This document shows, in pieces, positions 3,619-58,785 of a DNA stretch of 64,000 nt. Below the pieces are notes generated by a model. The model searched no databases and was not told where the DNA came from. It worked only from the letters and a program-made list of their open reading frames with translations. The stretch is taken from assembly GCF_051903065.1 (NCBI RefSeq), contig NZ_CP178438.1; one strand, written 5' to 3'. Each line of letters opens with the position of its first letter. The first letter of the stretch is position 1. The translations under genes and the position numbers were made by a program. The stretch comes from Escherichia coli (lineage in GTDB: Bacteria > Pseudomonadota > Gammaproteobacteria > Enterobacterales > Enterobacteriaceae).

Positions 3619-6510
<2,892 letters not shown>

Positions 6511-20433: not shown

Positions 20434-21099
20434 TTAATGCAGGCAGCACTGCTTAAATTTCTTACCACTACCGCACGGGCAAGGATCGTTACGCCCCGGT
20501 TTCTCTTCTGCTATGATCGGTTGCTGAACAGCTTTTTCCTGCGGATGCGCCATCCAGTATGCATGTAAATCAAGCGCCGCCAGTCGAATGGCATCTACGC
20601 TCTCTTCAAACGCTTCTGGCGACATCTTCTCTACCCGCTCGAAGTTTTCCTGAGTACCGTGCAGCGCTATCGCCTCCAGCGCTGGTTTTAACGAATCGGG
20701 CAATGTTGACCAGTCAGAAAGTGCCACGCCCCGCATATAGCCAAAGCACCACTCCTCAACAATCGTCAGCTCGCTGCCATCAACTTCTCGCAAGCCGAAT
20801 AACGGCTCAAACTGCTCCGGGAATTCGTTCAGACGCTCTGCGGTATCGGCCATATGTTGAAAAGCCAGGTTCATAAAGCGCGTCATCTCTTTCTCTGACG
20901 CCCAGCGCGGCACATAGTCAGCCCCACCCCACACGGCAACCAGCCACTGTGCCGGTTCAATCTCTTGCGGAGAACTCAACACCGCCGTCAATAAACCGTC
21001 CAGCTCCGCCACATCAAGGATGGCGTGGTCAGTGTTGTATTTGGTCAGAATATCGTCCAGCCATTCCAACTCACTTTCGTTTAACGGTCCCGTTTTCAT
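20434..21099 (-). CDS. yecA: UPF0149/SEC-C motif protein YecA
   Basis: 221-aa ORF ending in the SecA-type metal-binding motif [15 protein letters not shown]; synteny next to leuZ. Confidence 0.95.
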
Positions 21100-21222: not shown

Positions 21223-21400
21223 GGCACAAAAAAACCACCCGAAGGTGGTTTCACGACACTGCTTATTGCTTTGATTTTATTCTTATCTTTCCCATGGTAC
21301 CCGGAGCGGGACTTGAACCCGCACAGCGCGAACGCCGAGGGATTTTAAATTCTACGCAGGATCAATGAGTTACATAGCAGTGCATTGCGAAACTTTGCTG
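21223..21400. repeat. att direct repeat copy 1 (host-side leuZ terminator, displaced 56-nt 3' end of tRNA-Leu at 21295-21350, and about 50 bp of shared element-end sequence)
   Basis: Near-identical to 23538-23712; the part through gggattttaaat matches 58630-58754 inside intact leuZ. Confidence 0.85.
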
Positions 21401-23364: not shown

Positions 23365-23537
23365 AGCATTACAGTTTGCTCAGCAGGCCCCCCCTTCCCG
23401 GAAGAGTACCGGAAAACAGGCAAAGCGGCCTGGTTCTCTATGCTGGAGGCGACACGTTCAATTCGGCATTGCCAGGCTGTAGATTGCAGCTCATTGCACC
23501 CCGTGAGCACAGGATATGCACAGGGCGTGAATTGCAT

Positions 23538-23712
23538 GCACAAAAAAACCACCCGGAGGTGGTTTCACGACACTGCTTATTGCTTTGATTATTCTGATGT
23601 TTCCCATGGTACCCGGAGTGGGACTTGAACCCACACAGCGCGAACGCCGAGGGATTTTAAATTCTACGTAGGATCAATGAGTTACATAGCAGTGCATTGC
23701 GAAACTTTGCTG
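23538..23712. repeat. att direct repeat copy 2 (internal; terminator plus tRNA-Leu 3' fragment 23607-23662 with two substitutions)
   Basis: Aligns with copy 1 and copy 3; followed by element-end sequence that diverges after gaaactttgctg. Confidence 0.85.
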
Positions 23713-34004: not shown

Positions 34005-34760
34005 CTACATATCTGCCAACAACATCCCAGCCATACCATCCAGTCGCTTCTTAACCTTTTCCCAGCCCGGCATAACCTGCCCCATCAGACGGTAAAACTC
34101 CTCGCTGTGGTTGTGCTCAGCCACATGGCATAACTCATGTAGCAAAACATAATCGATACATTCTGAGGATGCCTTAACCAGCCATGGATTCAGGGTCAGA
34201 CAGCCTTTTGCTGAACAGTTGCCCCATTGCGTTTGCATCGCCCGCAGACGTATCGGAGGACGCTCACTGACCCAAAGGGTCTGCGGAATCAGTAAATCAA
34301 GCCTGCGCTGAAAAACATCTCTGGCACGTTCCCGATACCATTCAGCCAGCAAGGCTTTAATCTTTTCTGCCGATTTGTGTCTGACAGTCACTTCCAGACG
34401 CCCACGCAACATTTTCACTCGTTGCGGCACAGTAGCGTCTTCTGTCACTTTCAACTGATATTGCTTACCGAGATAATAATGGCTTTCTCCGCTGACATAC
34501 TGACGCGGAACAATGTGTATCTGTTGCTCCCTGAAATCACGCAGTTGCTGGTATATCCAGCGCCCACGTTTTTTCAGCGCAGACAATACCTCGTGCTCCG
34601 GTGTTTCAGGCGGTACAGAGGCCACAACCCGGCAGTCCGGATAAACCTTAATGAGCACCCTGCCCTTTACGACCTGACGCGGAACACACTGTACGACGAT
34701 GACCTCATCACCATAGACAATGCGTAACGCTTTCATTGATGGCGATTCTTTTTCACTCAT
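34005..34760 (-). CDS. DUF45/M48-family zinc metallopeptidase (YgjP-like), often linked to type I R-M loci
   Basis: 251-aa ORF with HExxH motif HELCHVAEHNH; ATGA overlap with the hsdR stop. Confidence 0.7.
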   Translation of the reverse strand: MSEKESPSMKALRIVYGDEVIVVQCVPRQVVKGRVLIKVYPDCRVVASVPPETPEHEVLSALKKRGRWIYQQLRDFREQQIHIVPRQYVSGESHYYLGKQYQLKVTEDATVPQRVKMLRGRLEVTVRHKSAEKIKALLAEWYRERARDVFQRRLDLLIPQTLWVSERPPIRLRAMQTQWGNCSAKGCLTLNPWLVKASSECIDYVLLHELCHVAEHNHSEEFYRLMGQVMPGWEKVKKRLDGMAGMLLADM

Positions 34761-37700
34761 GATTTCATCAAACCAACGCGCAGTATCTGGATGATGGTTT
34801 CCACAATACGGTTAACCTGATTCATTCCGGCACCAATTTCCCGGCAGGCCGTAAACAGCAGTGGTAGCAGACTTGTCTTAACGACTTTCTCAATGTCCTG
34901 GGGGTTCAGGGAGTTTTCTGCCACCGCTCTAACGATAATGCTGTCCACTTCAAAAGCCAGCTTCGTCCACTTATCCTGCACCTGAACGTCTTTTACCACA
35001 AAAACCTCAGGTAGCTCTTTTTTAAATACACCGTAATACGCCTGAGCATGCTTGTTTACCGCCAGTGCATCCGGGATATCGCTGAGCTTACGGGCTTCAA
35101 CCTGTTCTTCAAACTCACGGAATAAGAGGTACTGCTTAAGTGGATGGTCGAACAGTTTTTCAGCCTCTTCGATTGCCATACGCAGGAGTCTGGAAAAGGC
35201 CTCCTGAGCATACGGATCATCACGCAGCTCCTGCTCAATCATCTTCGTCACACGGGTTTTAATGATGTCGGTTTCATTGCGGGTTTTATTGTTGTCCCAC
35301 TCTTCGGGCTTTTCGCTCTTACCCATTTTACCGACTTCATACACGCCATCCGGTTCACGAACCTCAACGCCGGTGACATGCTTATCCAGCAGTTTTTTCA
35401 CCTGCTCGGCGTAGTCGTCATAATTGACCTGCTCTCCACTGACCTGCATCGCCCACTGGCGCAGGCTGGACATCTGTTTTACGGTTTCTTTATAGAGGTT
35501 TCGGTCTTGTTCCGTAAAGCTCTTGTCGGTGAAGAAGGTGGCGGACTGCAGTGCCACTTTCAGGCATCCGGCAAAGGCCGTTAACGCCTCGAAGAAATCA
35601 TCACGGGTTTTCTGATGGATATCGACCATCTCTCCGTCACGTTCTTCCATTTTAGGCACCAGTACCGCACGTAACTGCTCAGTATCATTTTTGTTTTTGA
35701 CACCAGCAAATATGGCCCACAGCTGGTTATACAGATGCGGCAGGCGCTTGTATTCAGAGCTCATGGCGCTGTACAGCCCGTCAATATCTTTGATGTCGTA
35801 TCCGCCCTGAGTTCGGGAGGCGAGGTCCTGATATTTGCCGATAGTCGTGTCCAGCTCAGCCAGAATACCGCGATAATCAATCAGCAGACCGAACTTTTTT
35901 AGTGGATGCAGTCGGTTCACCCGCGCAATCGCCTGGATAAGGTTGTGGGACTTAAGCGGCTTGTCGATATACAGCACGGTATTCTTCGGCTCATCAAACC
36001 CGGTGAGCAGTTTATCAACGACTATCAGCAATTTGAGCTTCTCATCGGTATCGAAACGACTGATGATATTGCGGGTATACACAGACTCATCCTGCGTGCC
36101 GACGTTATCTTTCCACCATTTCGTCACTTCCGGCAGTTTGCTTTCATCCACCTCAGTATTCCCTTCCCGGGTATCCGGCGGGCTGATAACTACAGCTGAC
36201 TCAAACAACCCGGCTTCATCAAGATACTTTTTATATTTGATGGCGGAAATCTTGCTGTCGCAGGCAAGCTGGCCTTTCAGCCCCTCATCAATATTCTTCG
36301 AGAAGTGCGTGGCGATATCGAGTGCGATCAGACGGATGCGATCATCTGCACTATAAACCTCACCTTTACGGGCATATTTACGCTTAAGGTCGGCTTTTTG
36401 CGCTTCGCTTAACCCATCGGTAATACGATCAAACCAGGCATCTATTGCCCGATCGTTAACCTCAAGGTCGGGAATACGTTCTTCATACAGCAAAGGTGTA
36501 ACGGCTTTATCTTCTACCGCTCGCTGCATGGTATAAGCGTGGACAATCGGTCCGAATTTATTGGTGGTCTTATCTTCTTTTAGCAATGGCGTACCAGTAA
36601 ATGCTACAAAGGCGGCGTTCGGCAGTGCCAGTTTCATTCGCACATGGTTCTCACCACCCTGGCTACGGTGTCCTTCATCAATCAGAACGATGATATCGGG
36701 GCTGGTATTGACGCATTCAGGAAGTTTTGTCGCTGAATTAAATTTCTGGATTAGGGTGAAAATGATGCGTTCTTTACCGGAGCCAATCTGTTTCGCCAGC
36801 ATCTGCCCGGATGTCGCCATTGCATTGGCTTTGTCTTTTTTCCCGGCCAACTCGCCGCCGGATGCAAAGGTACTGCTGAGCTGTTCTTCAAGATCGATAC
36901 GGTCCGTCACCACCACGATACGACACCGCTTCAGGCTGTCATGAAGGATCAGCGCCTTGCTGAGGAACACCATGGTGTACGATTTGCCAGAGCCGGTGGT
37001 ATGCCAGATAACACCACCTTCCCTGCCCCCATCGGGTCTGCGGGTACTGATGCGTTCCAGCAGTCTTTTAATCCCGAACACCTGCTGATAGCGGGCAACA
37101 ATTTTTCCGGTCTTTTTATCAAACAGGGTGAAGAAGCGGGTCATCTCCAGCAGACGTTCCGGCGAAAGCAGACTGATGAGCAGCTTATCCTGCCCGCTGA
37201 CAGCCAGTTCCCCCCCGGCGATTAACTGCTGATACCAGTTGAGATCGCCAACAGGACGATGCTCAAATAACGCATCAATTTGTTCAGTCGATAAAGGATG
37301 GTTGCGCAGGGCATACATCTGCGCATCGGTAATATCCTCTTCGCGCCATGCCGCCCAGAATTTCATTGGCGTATGGCATGTACCGTAGCGCCCGTCATGA
37401 CCGTTAATCGAAAGTAATAACTGGCTGTAGACAAACAGCTGCGGGATTTCATCGTTGAACTGGTTGCGGATACTCTGGGATATCCCCTCGTCAATGGTTG
37501 GCCCTTTCTTGCCATGACCAGCCGGGCTTTTCGCTTCAATAACAGCCAGCGGGATACCATTAACAAAGCAGACAATATCTGGCCTCCGGGTTTCAACACC
37601 ACCTGACCGCAATACCGTAAATTCTTCAGTAAAATGGAACTGGTTATTTTCCGGATGTTCCCAGTCGATCAGCGCAATGGTGGGGTTGACCTTCTTGCCA

Positions 37701-38044
37701 TCGACAAACTCCGTGACGGCGATACCGTAGAGCAGATGGTTATACATCCGCTCATTGGCTTTGAGCAGCCCTTCATTCAGCGCCGGAGAACAGACCTGTG
37801 ATATCAGGTTATCCAGTGCTTTTTCCGATAACTGGCAGGTTTTGCCACCCGCCATAAAGGAACGCTTCGACAGCTCTTCACGCAGAACCGGACGCAGCAC
37901 CACCTCATCCTGTTTATAGCCCCGGTAATCCATAATCTGTTTCGGAGATAAAAACGCCCAGCCGAGGCTGGTCAGTAACGTCAGTGCCGGAATTTTGGCG
38001 CTGTATTCTTCCTGGAATTTTGGCGTGTACGTCTGGTTCATCAT
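34757..38044 (-). CDS. hsdR: type I restriction enzyme R subunit
   Basis: 1095-aa ORF MMNQTYTPKFQEEYSAKIPALTLLTSLGWAF; helicase motifs HTTGSGKSYTMVF and VLIDEGHRSQ; operon with hsdM and hsdS. Confidence 0.9.
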   Translation of the reverse strand: MMNQTYTPKFQEEYSAKIPALTLLTSLGWAFLSPKQIMDYRGYKQDEVVLRPVLREELSKRSFMAGGKTCQLSEKALDNLISQVCSPALNEGLLKANERMYNHLLYGIAVTEFVDGKKVNPTIALIDWEHPENNQFHFTEEFTVLRSGGVETRRPDIVCFVNGIPLAVIEAKSPAGHGKKGPTIDEGISQSIRNQFNDEIPQLFVYSQLLLSINGHDGRYGTCHTPMKFWAAWREEDITDAQMYALRNHPLSTEQIDALFEHRPVGDLNWYQQLIAGGELAVSGQDKLLISLLSPERLLEMTRFFTLFDKKTGKIVARYQQVFGIKRLLERISTRRPDGGREGGVIWHTTGSGKSYTMVFLSKALILHDSLKRCRIVVVTDRIDLEEQLSSTFASGGELAGKKDKANAMATSGQMLAKQIGSGKERIIFTLIQKFNSATKLPECVNTSPDIIVLIDEGHRSQGGENHVRMKLALPNAAFVAFTGTPLLKEDKTTNKFGPIVHAYTMQRAVEDKAVTPLLYEERIPDLEVNDRAIDAWFDRITDGLSEAQKADLKRKYARKGEVYSADDRIRLIALDIATHFSKNIDEGLKGQLACDSKISAIKYKKYLDEAGLFESAVVISPPDTREGNTEVDESKLPEVTKWWKDNVGTQDESVYTRNIISRFDTDEKLKLLIVVDKLLTGFDEPKNTVLYIDKPLKSHNLIQAIARVNRLHPLKKFGLLIDYRGILAELDTTIGKYQDLASRTQGGYDIKDIDGLYSAMSSEYKRLPHLYNQLWAIFAGVKNKNDTEQLRAVLVPKMEERDGEMVDIHQKTRDDFFEALTAFAGCLKVALQSATFFTDKSFTEQDRNLYKETVKQMSSLRQWAMQVSGEQVNYDDYAEQVKKLLDKHVTGVEVREPDGVYEVGKMGKSEKPEEWDNNKTRNETDIIKTRVTKMIEQELRDDPYAQEAFSRLLRMAIEEAEKLFDHPLKQYLLFREFEEQVEARKLSDIPDALAVNKHAQAYYGVFKKELPEVFVVKDVQVQDKWTKLAFEVDSIIVRAVAENSLNPQDIEKVVKTSLLPLLFTACREIGAGMNQVNRIVETIIQILRVGLMKS

Positions 38045-38093
38045 TAATCCTTTTCTTTCTGGCGCTACTCGCTACTGGTCACATGAAGATTCA

Positions 38094-38777
38094 TCAATGC
38101 AGACAGCACCTCTTAAATTTTTTACCGCTGCCACACGGACACGGGTCATTTCGCCCGGGCATGTTTTCTGCCCCCTTCACTGGAACAGGCCGGGATGATG
38201 CCTCTGACATTCTCACTGACAACCAGTACTGATAAAGTGCCAGTGCAGCAGGCTGAATAAGGGAAATACTTTTCTCAAACTGCTCTCCGGTCATTTTCTC
38301 AAGTACAGGAAAATTCTTCTCCACGCCATGAAGAGCGATCACTTCCAGAGAAGGCCGTAACTCACCGGGAAGACCAGACCAGTCATCCAGTGACTTTCCT
38401 TTCATATAACCAAAACACCACTCTTCCACAATGGTATATTTTTCCCCCTTTACCTCACGCTCATTGAAAATCGGTTCAAACTGTTCAGGGGCCTCATACA
38501 GGCAGCCAGCGATATCGTTCATATGCTGAAAACACAGCCCCACAAAACGCGTCATCTCTTTTTCGGTGGTCCAGCGAGGGTGGTAATCACCTCGCCCCCA
38601 GATAGCACTGAGCCAGGTATTAGGGGAAATCGTATTCGGGCCAGAGACAATCGCTGTCAGAAAGCCATCCAGCTCAGAGAAACAGAGCACAGAATCATCA
38701 TTGCCGTATTTCAGCAACACCTCTTCCAGCCAGTCGATTTCCCGGTCAATCAGCGGCCCGCTTTTCGTCAGTTTCAT
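38094..38777 (-). CDS. YecA-like UPF0149 / SEC-C motif protein, paralogue of chromosomal yecA, inside the hsd operon
   Basis: 227-aa ORF MKLTKSGPLIDREIDWLEEVLLKYG... aligns along its length with YecA (20434-21099), including [11 protein letters not shown] and the terminal [21 protein letters not shown]; start overlaps hsdS stop, 49 bp before hsdR. Confidence 0.85.
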   Translation of the reverse strand: MKLTKSGPLIDREIDWLEEVLLKYGNDDSVLCFSELDGFLTAIVSGPNTISPNTWLSAIWGRGDYHPRWTTEKEMTRFVGLCFQHMNDIAGCLYEAPEQFEPIFNEREVKGEKYTIVEEWCFGYMKGKSLDDWSGLPGELRPSLEVIALHGVEKNFPVLEKMTGEQFEKSISLIQPAALALYQYWLSVRMSEASSRPVPVKGAENMPGRNDPCPCGSGKKFKRCCLH

Positions 38778-40012
38778 TCGGCAACCGCCTCATCGACCTT
38801 AACACGACGTTTGCCAGTCAGTAGCTGTTGCATCAGGGCTTTTTTCTCATCTCTCAGGCAGGCGAGTTTTTTCTCCAGCGTGGAGATTTCGGCATCGGCG
38901 ACGGACAGGACGGCGGCGATTTTTTGTTGTTCTCTTATACTGGGTAAGTCTAGTTCAAACTCTTTAACCATTCCGGCGTTTAGGTTGGACTGTGTACCTT
39001 GCTGGCCTTGTAGTTTTATTTTTTCTTTTAATGATGTAAGATAGAAATATAAAAACTCATAATTTAAACAATCTTTTGGTCTAATACCCAAGATTGCCTG
39101 CGAAGATGTTAAATTTACAGCAGCAATGCTGCATTCACCTATAGAAGCATACATAGCATAAAGAACCGAGTTTTTTGGATATATTCTTGCGGATGAACTG
39201 TTCAATCCTAATTCAGTCAGATATTTTTCAGTTGTAGCAATCCACTTTCCATTAGATGTCATATCAGAAATAGATACCCATGGGATATTCCCGCCATAAT
39301 ACTCTTCAACCGTTGATTTCGGAGTACCTCCACTGTTCATATCGGCTATCGCACCCAGTTTTACTCTCTTCCACTCCCCACTAAACCTCACCCCATTCTC
39401 ATCCAGCAAGCGTTTCTTCCCGGTAAGTAATTGCTGCATCAGGGCTTTTTTCTGCTGCTGACTATTGGCGAGCAGCTTTTCCGTCACTGAAATCGCGTTA
39501 TCCCAGGTTGACAAGATTTTGGCTATTTTCTTTTGTTCCGCCAGTGGGGGGAGTAATACAGGAAAACCGCAAACATCATCACGTGTAATATTAGGGTCTT
39601 TACGACTACTTGCCGCAAATTTCTTCCATAATTTTACATTCCCGTTTAAGTAATTCAGGATATATGCTGGTTCTGCTTTATCACGATCGAGTATAAGACC
39701 GGATAATGCTTGGTTTATTGCTGCCGGTATAGTGAGAAGTCCAGTTCTTCCGATCTGGTTAAAGCCTCCATACATCGCTACTAAAACAGTACCAACAGGA
39801 AATACAGAGCAAGATGTTTCTAAAAGGGCTGTGTCAGTAATTTTCTCATCAGTTGAGATAATTTCACCGTTATTTAGGTCTAATGTCTTTACCCATGGAG
39901 TACCAGCAGTAGAAAAATAACGCTCTCCCTCAGCCCTCAGCGGAGTAGATCCAGATTTAATTTTTGCTATGTCCGATAATTTGACATGTCTCCAGCCAGG
40001 TTTGAGCTTCAT
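38774..40012 (-). CDS. hsdS: type I restriction-modification specificity subunit
   Basis: 412-aa ORF with two target-recognition halves and conserved HsdS core LLTGK(K/R)RL; overlaps hsdM stop. Confidence 0.88.
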   Translation of the reverse strand: MKLKPGWRHVKLSDIAKIKSGSTPLRAEGERYFSTAGTPWVKTLDLNNGEIISTDEKITDTALLETSCSVFPVGTVLVAMYGGFNQIGRTGLLTIPAAINQALSGLILDRDKAEPAYILNYLNGNVKLWKKFAASSRKDPNITRDDVCGFPVLLPPLAEQKKIAKILSTWDNAISVTEKLLANSQQQKKALMQQLLTGKKRLLDENGVRFSGEWKRVKLGAIADMNSGGTPKSTVEEYYGGNIPWVSISDMTSNGKWIATTEKYLTELGLNSSSARIYPKNSVLYAMYASIGECSIAAVNLTSSQAILGIRPKDCLNYEFLYFYLTSLKEKIKLQGQQGTQSNLNAGMVKEFELDLPSIREQQKIAAVLSVADAEISTLEKKLACLRDEKKALMQQLLTGKRRVKVDEAVAE

Positions 40013-41565
40013 AAGCTATCCTCTTGCATACTGAAGTTTTCTCTTTCACCATAACCCAACTCCTTCAGATAACCCGCCATCTCTGTTTCGAGTTTTGACA
40101 GTTCCACTTTCAATTGCTCACGTTCGGCACGCACAGCCAGCAAGTCAATCTCGTCTTCTTCCTCAAAGGTATCGACATAGCGCGGAATATTGAGGTTGTA
40201 ATCGTTGTCCTGAATTTCCTTCAGGCTGGCGAGATAGGCGTATTTCTCGACGTTATCGCCATCACGGTAGGTCTTGACGATTTTCTTAATGTTTTCTTCG
40301 CTAAGCTGGTTCTGGTTTTTACCTGCCTTGAATTCACGGCTGGCATCGATAAACAGCACCTTATCATCAACTTTCTGCTTTTTGAAAATCAGAATCGCAG
40401 CCGGAATCCCCGTACCGTAGAACAGTTTTTCCGGCAGACCAATTACCGCATCCAGCAAATTTTCGTCGATCAGTTTCTGGCGAATTTTACCTTCGCTGGA
40501 GCCACGGAAAAGCACACCGTGTGGCACAACTACGCCCATACGGCCAGTTCCCGGTTTCAGGGTTTCGATCATATGCGAGATAAAAGCGTAATCTCCTTTA
40601 GTCTTCGGCGGTACACCGCGACGAAAACGGCCAAACTTATCGTTCTCAGCCTCGTCATGGCCCCACTTATCCAGGCTGAACGGTGGGTTAGCGGTCACGA
40701 TATCAAACAGCATCAGGTCGCCATTTTTATCGAGCAGTTTCGGGTTACGAATGGTATCGCCCCACTCGATTTTATGGTTGTCTTCGCCGTGCAGGAACAT
40801 GTTCATTTTCGCCAGCGACCACGTGGAGCCAATCGCTTCCTGACCAAACAACGCATAATTACGGCTGTTATGTCCGGAGACAATTTTACGTCCGCACTTC
40901 ATCAATAACGAACCAGAGCCGCAGGCCGGATCGCAGATGGTATCACCCGGTTGCGGATCAAGCAGTTCAGCAATCAGGTCTGAAACTTCTGGTGGGGTAT
41001 AGAATTCCCCGGCTTTCTGCCCACCGCTGGCGGCAAAGTTTTTGATCAGATATTCGTAGGCATTACCGATAACGTCCAGCGTACCTACACGGCTTGGCTT
41101 CAGGTTGAGATCTTCACCGGCGAAGTCTTCCAGCAACTGACGCAGGATGGTGTTCTTCTGTTTTTCTTCACCCAAGCGGTCAGTGTTAAACGAAATATCC
41201 TGGAACACGCTTTTCCCGGCATCTTTCAGTTTGGTTCCGTTGGCTTCTTCGATTGCATGCAGAGCCTGATCGATACGCTCACCGTTACCCGGCTCATGGC
41301 GGCGTTCGTACAGCGCATAAAAGCTGGCACTTTTTGGCAGTACAAAACGCTCGTTGGCCATCATCGCTTCAATCAGTTCCGGCGCATCGCCATACTGTTC
41401 TTTGTATTCGTCATAGTGATCCTGCCAGACATCTGAAATGTACTTGAGGAACAGCATGGTAAGGATAAAGTCTTTATAGGTATCAGCACTGATGGTGCCA
41501 CGGAACGTATCACACGCGGCCCACAGGGCTTTGTTGATCGTGTCCTGACTGATTTTGTCGTTCAT
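40009..41565 (-). CDS. hsdM: type I restriction-modification DNA methyltransferase subunit (N6-adenine)
   Basis: 518-aa ORF MNDKISQDTINKALWAACDTFRG; motif I DPACGSGSLL; motif IV NPPF in TANPPFSLDKWG. Confidence 0.92.
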   Translation of the reverse strand: MNDKISQDTINKALWAACDTFRGTISADTYKDFILTMLFLKYISDVWQDHYDEYKEQYGDAPELIEAMMANERFVLPKSASFYALYERRHEPGNGERIDQALHAIEEANGTKLKDAGKSVFQDISFNTDRLGEEKQKNTILRQLLEDFAGEDLNLKPSRVGTLDVIGNAYEYLIKNFAASGGQKAGEFYTPPEVSDLIAELLDPQPGDTICDPACGSGSLLMKCGRKIVSGHNSRNYALFGQEAIGSTWSLAKMNMFLHGEDNHKIEWGDTIRNPKLLDKNGDLMLFDIVTANPPFSLDKWGHDEAENDKFGRFRRGVPPKTKGDYAFISHMIETLKPGTGRMGVVVPHGVLFRGSSEGKIRQKLIDENLLDAVIGLPEKLFYGTGIPAAILIFKKQKVDDKVLFIDASREFKAGKNQNQLSEENIKKIVKTYRDGDNVEKYAYLASLKEIQDNDYNLNIPRYVDTFEEEDEIDLLAVRAEREQLKVELSKLETEMAGYLKELGYGERENFSMQEDSL

Positions 41566-58457: not shown

Positions 58458-58629
58458 AGCATTACAACTTGCTCAGCAGGCCCCCCTTCCCGGAAGAGTA
58501 CCGGAAAACAGGCAAAGCGGCCTGGTTCTCTATGCTGGAGGCGACACGTTCAATTCGGCATTGCCAGGCTGTAGATTGCAGCTCATTGCACCCCGTGCGC
58601 ACAGGATATGCACAGGGCGTGAATTGCAT

Positions 58630-58754
58630 GCACAAAAAAACCACCCGAAGGTGGTTTCACGACACTGCTTATTGCTTTGATTATTCTGATGTTTCCCATG
58701 GTACCCGGAGCGGGACTTGAACCCGCACAGCGCGAACGCCGAGGGATTTTAAAT
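58630..58754. repeat. att direct repeat copy 3 (element-borne terminator plus the 3' 56 nt of intact leuZ)
   Basis: Matches copies 1 and 2 through gggattttaaat, after which the intact tRNA continues. Confidence 0.85.
58634..58657 (-). terminator. Rho-independent terminator of the glyW-cysT-leuZ operon (also present in att copies 1 and 2)
   Basis: Minus-strand hairpin aaccacc-ttcg-ggtggtt followed by ttttttt. Confidence 0.75.
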
Positions 58755-58785
58755 CCCTTGTGTCTACCGATTCCACCATCCGGGC
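58699..58785 (-). tRNA. leuZ: tRNA-Leu (UAA anticodon)
   Basis: Reverse complement reads GCCCGGATGGTGGAATCGGTAGACACAAGGGATTTAAAATCCC...CTCCGGGTACCA (87 nt, CCA end). Confidence 0.95.

Follow-up and report, generated by a model that had tools for sequence, protein, structure and literature searches.

A YecA-like gene embedded between hsdS and hsdR of a mobile type I restriction-modification operon matches the defense candidate PDC-S12

Between the M/S genes and hsdR of the EcoprrI type IC restriction-modification (R-M) locus lies an optional gene, prrC, which is found almost exclusively in this embedded position (PMC12707154). Embedding in a known multi-gene defense system (type I R-M) also characterizes PDC-S12, one of a set of PDC candidates that were derived from guilt-by-embedding and are described by their authors as untested (Payne et al. 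2024, bioRxiv 10.1101/2024.01.29.577857). Type I R-M and PDC-S12 are both reported among the frequent defense systems recently exchanged by enterobacterial pipolins (PMC11551731). Here, we analyzed a 64,000-nt stretch of Escherichia coli DNA (the window; contig NZ_CP178438.1 of assembly GCF_051903065.1) in which an open reading frame (ORF) of 227 amino acids (aa), at positions 38094 to 38777 on the minus strand, sits between hsdS and hsdR of a type I operon. The best explanation for this gene, hereafter the YecA-like gene, is that of a mobile copy of yecA (YecA/AscA) which has joined a type I R-M operon as an optional fourth gene and which corresponds to PDC-S12; it is strictly a xenologue, carried on mobile elements.

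The PADLOC-DB v2 model of PDC-S12 (PDLC04917) aligns with residues 5-227 of the YecA-like ORF on profile positions 2-218 of 218 (330 bits, E = 1.9e-99), and we find no structural difference between PDC-S12 and the YecA-like gene, both being embedded in type I R-M. The combination of gene and operon is already known, as a catalogued candidate with a putative defense role, and the preliminary description of this DNA, made from the sequence alone, was mistaken in taking it for an unrecognized one, given this full-length match, the annotation of the gene in hundreds of genomes and the listing in the pipolin paper. A full-text literature search retrieved no study on the function of YecA-like genes in R-M or defense. 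Note that the same model scores the chromosomal YecA encoded in the window (20434-21099) higher, 364 vs 330 bits; since the housekeeping protein scores higher, the model cannot separate the embedded clade from ordinary yecA, and PADLOC censuses probably report PDC-S12 wherever an ordinary yecA is present, with inflated counts.

YecA/AscA binds SecB (Kd about 150 nM) and 70S ribosomes via its metal-binding domain and prevents aggregation in vitro; when overproduced, it suppressed the growth defect of a secB strain and did not harm cells (bioRxiv 10.1101/2020.07.21.215244). Its client-binding (chaperone) activity is attributed to the N-terminal domain. The YecA-like protein has the same architecture, length class and metal-binding core, and aligns end to end with the 221-aa chromosomal YecA (127 of 223 residues identical, 57%, E = 4e-99, BLASTP), in keeping with the full-length paralogue proposed in the preliminary description. 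By homology, it should share the SecB and ribosome binding and a holdase-type activity. It differs from YecA/AscA in belonging to a separate mobile clade, always located after hsdS and evolving about twofold faster, in a three-residue N-terminal extension, and in C92 and K126, the only conserved residues specific to the clade. Orthology to chromosomal yecA is ruled out, the gene lying inside an island and in a separate monophyletic mobile clade while the true yecA is at 20434-21099; orthologues would keep the chromosomal position beside tyrP and the leuZ tRNA cluster and would group with the host lineage. The protein divides as follows:

38223..38735, minus strand: UPF0149 domain, mostly helical with one beta-hairpin, residues 15-185 (PF03695; Foldseek)
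38154..38222, minus strand: variable linker, about residues 186-208 (predicted local distance difference test, pLDDT, 66-67 for residues 190-210)
38103..38153, minus strand: SEC-C, or SecA-type metal-binding, motif, residues 209-225 (PF02810; PDB sequence matches)

Both domains are detected by Pfam (UPF0149, E = 1.3e-28; SEC-C, E = 7.8e-10), and the protein exceeds the cut-offs of the NCBIfam YecA equivalog NF007704 (359.1 bits vs 149) and of TIGR02292 (135.9 bits vs 33.8). The hsd-linked clade and chromosomal YecA have 82 near-invariant positions in common, the linker being the least conserved stretch within the clade. The metal ligands C213, C215, C224 and C225 (CPC...CC) are invariant in the alignment (A2), and the zinc motif equals that of chromosomal YecA except for R/Q at position 223. 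A PDB sequence search matched only the zinc domains of SecA (1sx0, 1tm6, 1ozb) and the C-terminus of YchJ (9l6b); in SecA the motif is carried by a translocase ATPase, in the YecA-like protein by a UPF0149 domain. The 1ozb entry is the complex of SecB with the SecA C-terminus. The AlphaFold2 model has a pLDDT of 90.8, with less confidence in the linker ahead of the zinc knuckle, and Foldseek compared it with the PDB to return two UPF0149 structures, 4gyt (probability 1.00, template modeling (TM) score 0.64, target-normalized) and Haemophilus influenzae YgfB, 1izm (0.99, 0.63), with no meaningful match beyond these and no enzyme fold. YgfB shares the UPF0149 fold but is without the zinc knuckle, is chromosomal and has no R-M link; in Pseudomonas aeruginosa, it neutralizes the antiterminator AlpA purely by protein-protein binding (PMC9998450).

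Scans with Pfam, NCBIfam and PADLOC found no catalytic domain in the YecA-like protein, only UPF0149/SEC-C and SEC-C-tail matches, and neither Pfam, PADLOC nor the fold search revealed a nuclease, ATPase, pore or other effector domain. In this it departs from PrrC, which joins an ABC-ATPase to an anticodon nuclease, and an anticodon nuclease of the PrrC/RloC type is ruled out, the scans showing neither the ABC-ATPase nor a C-terminal nuclease domain. The SEC-C tail also matches the C-terminal ends of the PADLOC E2 and E1-E2 models (E = 1.6e-05 to 2.4e-04, from the ORF at 38097-38777), so that other defense-associated proteins also end in such zinc knuckles.

The host type I operon has the gene order M-S-R, which, like an extra ORF in type ID loci (StySBLI, EcoR9I and KpnAI being type ID examples), is at most a lead towards its subfamily among IA-IE. 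The genes hsdM, hsdS, the YecA-like ORF, hsdR and a peptidase gene are consecutive, all five on the minus strand, which the preliminary description had not mentioned:

40009..41565, minus strand: hsdM, type I methyltransferase subunit, 518 aa (TIGR00497, PADLOC MTase_I models, RefSeq)
38774..40012, minus strand: hsdS, specificity subunit, 412 aa (PADLOC Specificity_I PDLC03156, 489 bits; RefSeq)
38774..38777, minus strand: ATGA overlap of the hsdS stop codon (TGA) with the ATG of the YecA-like gene (read from the sequence)
38094..38777, minus strand: YecA-like gene, 227 aa, WP_104773357.1 (RefSeq 'YecA/YgfB family protein', Pfam, NCBIfam, PADLOC)
38045..38093, minus strand: spacer of 49 nt from the YecA-like stop codon to the hsdR ATG, with an AAGGA ribosome-binding site
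34757..38044, minus strand: hsdR, restriction/translocase subunit, 1095 aa, or 1094 aa from the RefSeq start at 38041 (TIGR00348, PADLOC REase_I)
34005..34760, minus strand: M48/YgjP-like (SprT/WLM-like) metallopeptidase gene, 251 aa (RefSeq; PF01863 on homologues)

HsdR passes TIGR00348 (460.7 bits vs a cut-off of 284.55) and scores 1373.6 bits against the PADLOC REase_I model PDLC03041, and HsdM passes TIGR00497 (284.1 bits vs 242.75); judged by these profiles, the flanking genes form a genuine type I R-M system in which HsdR, HsdM and HsdS are all present. The hsdS start overlaps the hsdM end by 4 nt, the peptidase gene overlaps the hsdR stop, and the ATGA read at 38774-38777 bears out the overlap of the hsdS stop with the YecA-like ATG that had been claimed earlier, as does the measured spacer for the claimed 49-bp distance to hsdR. 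Note that this distance holds for the first hsdR ATG, at 38044, the next one, used by RefSeq, giving 52 nt. The ATGA overlap suggests that translation of the YecA-like gene is coupled to that of hsdS. A consensus scan for promoters and terminators gave sites no more frequently than expected by chance, and no terminator-like site was seen on the coding (minus) strand between the YecA-like ORF and hsdR. Since the genes overlap and no convincing promoter or terminator was found, the hsd genes and the YecA-like gene likely form a single operon. The 8-kb stretch around the ORF is 100% identical to that of strain 23CRST027 (NZ_AP045789.1).

We then consider how far this arrangement extends. The YecA-like gene is present in 420 of 5426 complete E. 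coli genomes, 417 of these copies covering at least 80% of the gene, and hsdR of the window's family in 552 of the 5426. About 346 plasmids, mostly conjugative IncF plasmids of Klebsiella, encode the protein at ≥80% identity, and in both IncF plasmids examined (loci L009 and L010) the operon lies downstream of traX-finO. Among representative genomes of ~100,000 species, eight carry the gene, all from Enterobacterales (Franconibacter, Klebsiella michiganensis, Intestinirhabdus, Enterobacter, two Buttiauxella, Morganella and Citrobacter freundii); Providencia also carries it. The six matches in phages were chromosomal yecA at the ends of prophage records, so that no phage-borne homologue was found.

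The linkage to hsdS is without exception in these samples. The hsdS stop overlaps the YecA-like ATG, as ATGA or TGATG, in 14 of the 14 loci examined, and the hsdS annotation is overlapped by all 30 sampled E. coli matches and all 24 sampled plasmid matches (≥89% identity). Defining the hsd-linked clade at ≥75% identity, we saw no member away from an hsdS 3' end across nine or more species and different replicons, so the synteny is conserved across both. The partner is retained even where the rest of the operon is not. The hsdS ahead of the Morganella gene has as its partner an hsdM that shares only 42% identity with that of the window. Downstream of the YecA-like gene in M. morganii (L025, 6685-8714) and Providencia (L002-L005), the first 11 hsdR codons survive, followed by a GmrSD/HEC-06-like type IV gene. 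In Providencia, an insertion sequence (IS) element additionally removed hsdM and most of hsdS, leaving an hsdS fragment upstream of the YecA-like gene. In the loci of both genera the gene is intact, with a ratio of nonsynonymous to synonymous substitution rates (dN/dS) of ~0.12 against the window. As the linkage persists where hsdR is lost or hsdM divergent, the conserved genomic partner of the YecA-like gene is the hsdS 3' end and not hsdR.

In database matches, the YecA-like protein forms a tight group at 69-100% identity, vs ≤60% for chromosomal YecA of Enterobacterales, and the hsd-linked clade is 52-60% identical to any enterobacterial chromosomal YecA. In a neighbor-joining tree, the hsd-linked copies form a monophyletic group whose sister, P0021, is 69% identical and comes from metagenome contigs, where it is not beside hsd genes; the two together are sister to YecA of Enterobacteriaceae and Erwiniaceae. 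This topology points to a single capture from an enterobacterial lineage. On P0021 contigs, a neighboring gene has a counterpart in 'Citrobacter sp. JGM124' at 83% identity. One such contig (L014) encodes a P0021-type relative at 1527-2210 and, ~1.9 kb downstream, a second YecA-like gene (4087-4629), 46% identical and cut by the contig end; as both sit on this contig, the P0021 lineage has two adjacent YecA paralogues.

For full-length alleles of the YecA-like gene, including pairs with dS >1, dN/dS is 0.07-0.14, rising to 0.38 for a 216-aa allele with an internal deletion (L016). The corresponding values are 0.03-0.06 for chromosomal yecA in the three closest comparisons (0.145 with K. oxytoca), and 0.02-0.04 for hsdM and 0.03-0.11 for hsdR in the same operons. 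The ratio of the YecA-like gene is thus about twice that of chromosomal yecA, and the comparisons give no overall signature of positive selection. By these ratios, the gene is maintained under purifying selection and is not a decayed copy. The preliminary description had allowed for a degraded yecA copy without conserved synteny, which is contradicted by a dN/dS of ~0.1 and by the overlap in 14 of 14 loci.

The slot between hsdS and hsdR, which had been described as variable, is indeed so, three states being found in a single hsd family, whose HsdM and HsdR are 94-99% and 88-98% identical, respectively, to those of the window. It is empty in NZ_CP081192 and NZ_CP116981, where hsdS and hsdR are ~21 nt apart and every gene is annotated as intact; it holds the YecA-like gene alone in the window and in L006, L010, L016 and L026; and it holds the YecA-like gene together with a gene for a 594-aa cold-shock-domain protein in L008, L009, L019, L020 and L022-24. 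The last state occurs in ~199 E. coli genomes, the YecA-like allele class at 80-90% identity numbering 198, and about half of the E. coli loci with the YecA-like gene are without the cold-shock-domain gene. Homology between slot variants sets in again at the hsdS 3' end and near hsdR codon 10, which suggests that slot contents have been swapped as cassettes by recombination. An obligate subunit of this type I family is ruled out, since L011 and L012, loci with an empty slot, have intact M-S-R-M48 operons with a ~21-nt gap in place of the gene. In about 66 E. coli genomes, truncation by IS1 has left hsdR and the M48 gene as an orphan pair (L013, strain KFu023; L102, strain YJ3; equivalent to window 34005-38100). 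Lost in the IS1 event were hsdM, hsdS and the YecA-like gene, together with most of the cold-shock-domain gene, of which a 210-nt 3' remnant stays; beyond IS1 lies a TIR-domain gene.

The gene of the 594-aa protein (L009 8707-10491, L008 3801-5585), located between the YecA-like gene and hsdR, is not in the window and is also found on many Klebsiella plasmids. The protein begins with a cold-shock domain, continues with a helical middle part and ends in a Cys/His-rich region in which Cys and His columns are invariant. PADLOC gives no significant match (one marginal hit, to CSD_V, E = 0.0086) and PHROG none, and in its AlphaFold2 model (pLDDT 83.8) only the cold-shock-domain part resembles PDB entries. 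Homologues occur alone in the variable region of a Vibrio metschnikovii integrative and conjugative element (ICE), in a V. cholerae integrase island and on an Erwinia chromosome. Because they occur alone in unrelated islands, the gene is an independent module, and it may be an uncatalogued single-gene defense candidate. A two-gene system of YecA-like and cold-shock-domain proteins is ruled out by these solitary homologues and by the half of loci without the second gene.

The M48/YgjP-like peptidase gene accompanies hsdR in every complete operon variant, with or without the YecA-like gene, and the peptidase has no PADLOC or NCBIfam match. Being tied to a DNA translocase, such a protease might clear away HsdR that has stalled and in this way alleviate restriction. 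A functional pairing of the peptidase with the YecA-like gene is unsupported: the peptidase is found with and without the gene, and the Morganella gene is found without hsdR or peptidase.

The YecA-like ORF lies 16,995 nt from chromosomal yecA, and two features delimit the region concerned:

20434..21099, minus strand: chromosomal yecA, 221 aa, flanking the island (NF007704, 434.3 bits)
58699..58785, minus strand: tRNA-Leu(taa), integration target at the far island end (ARAGORN)

The tRNA-Leu(taa) gene belongs to a cluster with tRNA-Cys and tRNA-Gly at 58.7-59.0 kb. Its 3' region and flank are present in three copies, at 21288-21350, about 23409-23662 and 58501-58785, the first two being partial tRNA-Leu/attachment-site copies (exact repeats of 63 and 97 nt). 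The three copies imply two tandem elements between yecA and the tRNA cluster, one of ~2.3 kb and a ~35-kb pipolin-like island, whose cargo comprises an integrase, a type-B DNA polymerase (piPolB), Hhe, a DUF262 pair and the hsd operon. E. coli pipolins insert at tRNA-Leu between pgsA and yecA (PMC11551731). Since the island inserts at this hotspot adjoining yecA, the nearness of the two genes is a by-product of it without functional meaning; of the remark that the paralogue is encoded 17 kb away, the distance stands and any functional significance does not. A local duplication of the neighboring yecA is ruled out by the identity of only 57%, by the mobile clade and by the tRNA-Leu site, which explains the nearness.

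What might such a gene do in an R-M operon? The YecA-like protein would probably be made by stop-start coupling from hsdS, and so in similar, low amounts. Our preferred reading, held tentatively and short of conviction, is that it is a dedicated holdase or adaptor with a stoichiometric action on the R-M proteins: it could associate with the methyltransferase core (HsdS/HsdM), or with nascent HsdR while still at the ribosome, and this binding would tune the assembly, localization or timing of restriction when the operon enters a new, unmodified host. The protein would then be neither a toxin nor an effector. A low-copy partner such as the R-M complex would fit better, because an expression this low could presumably not block the tens of thousands of ribosomes in a cell. 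That the protein depends functionally on HsdS or HsdM is further suggested by the exclusive embedding next to hsdS, unlike the neighboring cold-shock-domain gene, which is found alone. Several points weigh against this reading. Intact operons of the same family (L011, L012) are without the gene, which is therefore not needed for the type I enzyme, and a chromosomal YecA was present in all enterobacterial hosts examined, which makes the benefit of a second chaperone doubtful. The binding to Hsd subunits is putative. The position of the gene is that of known abortive-infection genes, e.g. prrC. In most pairwise comparisons, the protein evolves 2-4x faster than HsdM or HsdR, which would also fit an arms race.

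The resemblance to prrC is at the origin of one alternative, in which the protein is a guard-type or stand-alone anti-phage module, held by or monitoring the type I complex and freed when a phage anti-restriction protein disables that complex; once released, it would interfere with translation or secretion via its ribosome- and SecB-binding zinc knuckle. We regard this as possible, although unlikely. The slot is the same as that of prrC (PMC12707154), the gene matches a candidate derived by guilt-by-embedding, and the slot also takes another mobile single gene, that of the cold-shock-domain protein, known from an ICE variable region and an integrase island. The island is dense in defense genes (Hhe, the DUF262 pair, piPolB), dN/dS is about twice that of chromosomal yecA, and SEC-C tails match the E2 and E1-E2 models. 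However, no effector domain (nuclease, ATPase, pore) was detected by Pfam, PADLOC or fold search, selection leaves no overall positive signature, and the protein is nearly indistinguishable from a non-toxic housekeeping chaperone whose overproduction suppressed the secB growth defect; a stoichiometric blocker from a weakly expressed operon would, moreover, be unlikely to stop ribosomes. A role as a shield against anti-restriction proteins has also been considered, namely that the zinc knuckle, a basic element that normally binds an acidic surface of SecB, captures together with the UPF0149 domain acidic DNA-mimic inhibitors such as Ocr and ArdA, so that the type I enzyme stays active. The SecA-type motif is intact, the UPF0149 protein YgfB binds and neutralizes the regulator AlpA (PMC9998450), and the operon travels with conjugative plasmids and islands, vehicles that encounter anti-restriction systems. 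But the proposal is wholly inferential, the host's own YecA bears the same knuckle, and any low-copy sponge would be far outnumbered by the Ocr produced, which makes this very unlikely. As a broader statement covering guard and shield alike, that the YecA-like protein would be a new non-enzymatic R-M accessory coupling the HsdS/HsdM core to the ribosome or to SecB strikes us as rather unlikely.

Two further explanations dispense with restriction altogether. The gene could be a generic chaperone copy serving mobile elements, for which the hsdS junction is a convenient expression site flanked by recombination. Essentially all features of YecA are kept, distant YecA-family genes are found beside Tn3-family or IS66 transposases on plasmids of Xanthomonas, Pseudomonas and Acidovorax, and cassette boundaries at conserved flanks (hsdS 3' end, about hsdR codon 10) favor homologous recombination. 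This is hard to reconcile with a clade (≥75% identity) never seen off the hsdS 3' end, even for alleles with saturated synonymous divergence, and with a conserved stop-start overlap, and we consider it quite unlikely. Finally, a decaying or neutral yecA duplicate without function would account for a gene that is optional and under somewhat weaker constraint than chromosomal yecA, but is hardly credible: it is contradicted by the selection and synteny data, with a dN/dS of ~0.1 across deep divergence, 417 of 420 E. coli copies covering ≥80% of the gene, and a distinct clade, 52-60% identical to enterobacterial chromosomal YecA, that is not a local duplicate.

The distant YecA-family genes show 26-32% identity (L099 3742-4440, Xanthomonas citri pXCAW58; L100 4974-5687, Pseudomonas ficuserectae plasmid; L101 4911-5699, Acidovorax plasmid). 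They lie directly downstream of Tn3-family transposases preceded by a ribbon-helix-helix (RHH)-PIN toxin-antitoxin pair, or beside IS66, and a gene of this kind is carried by 117 Xanthomonas plasmids. This pattern suggests that UPF0149/SEC-C proteins have been taken up by mobile elements on repeated occasions.

The YecA-like gene is widespread: ~8% of the complete E. coli genomes have it, as do hundreds of IncF plasmids of Klebsiella, many of them from clinical isolates. If the protein modulates the assembly, timing or phage-sensing of the type I enzyme, it would be the first R-M accessory of the chaperone type, and would bear on how plasmid- and island-borne restriction systems become established in new hosts. 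If it instead couples the complex to the ribosome or SecB as a guard or shield, a chaperone of secretion would have been put to new use in immunity.

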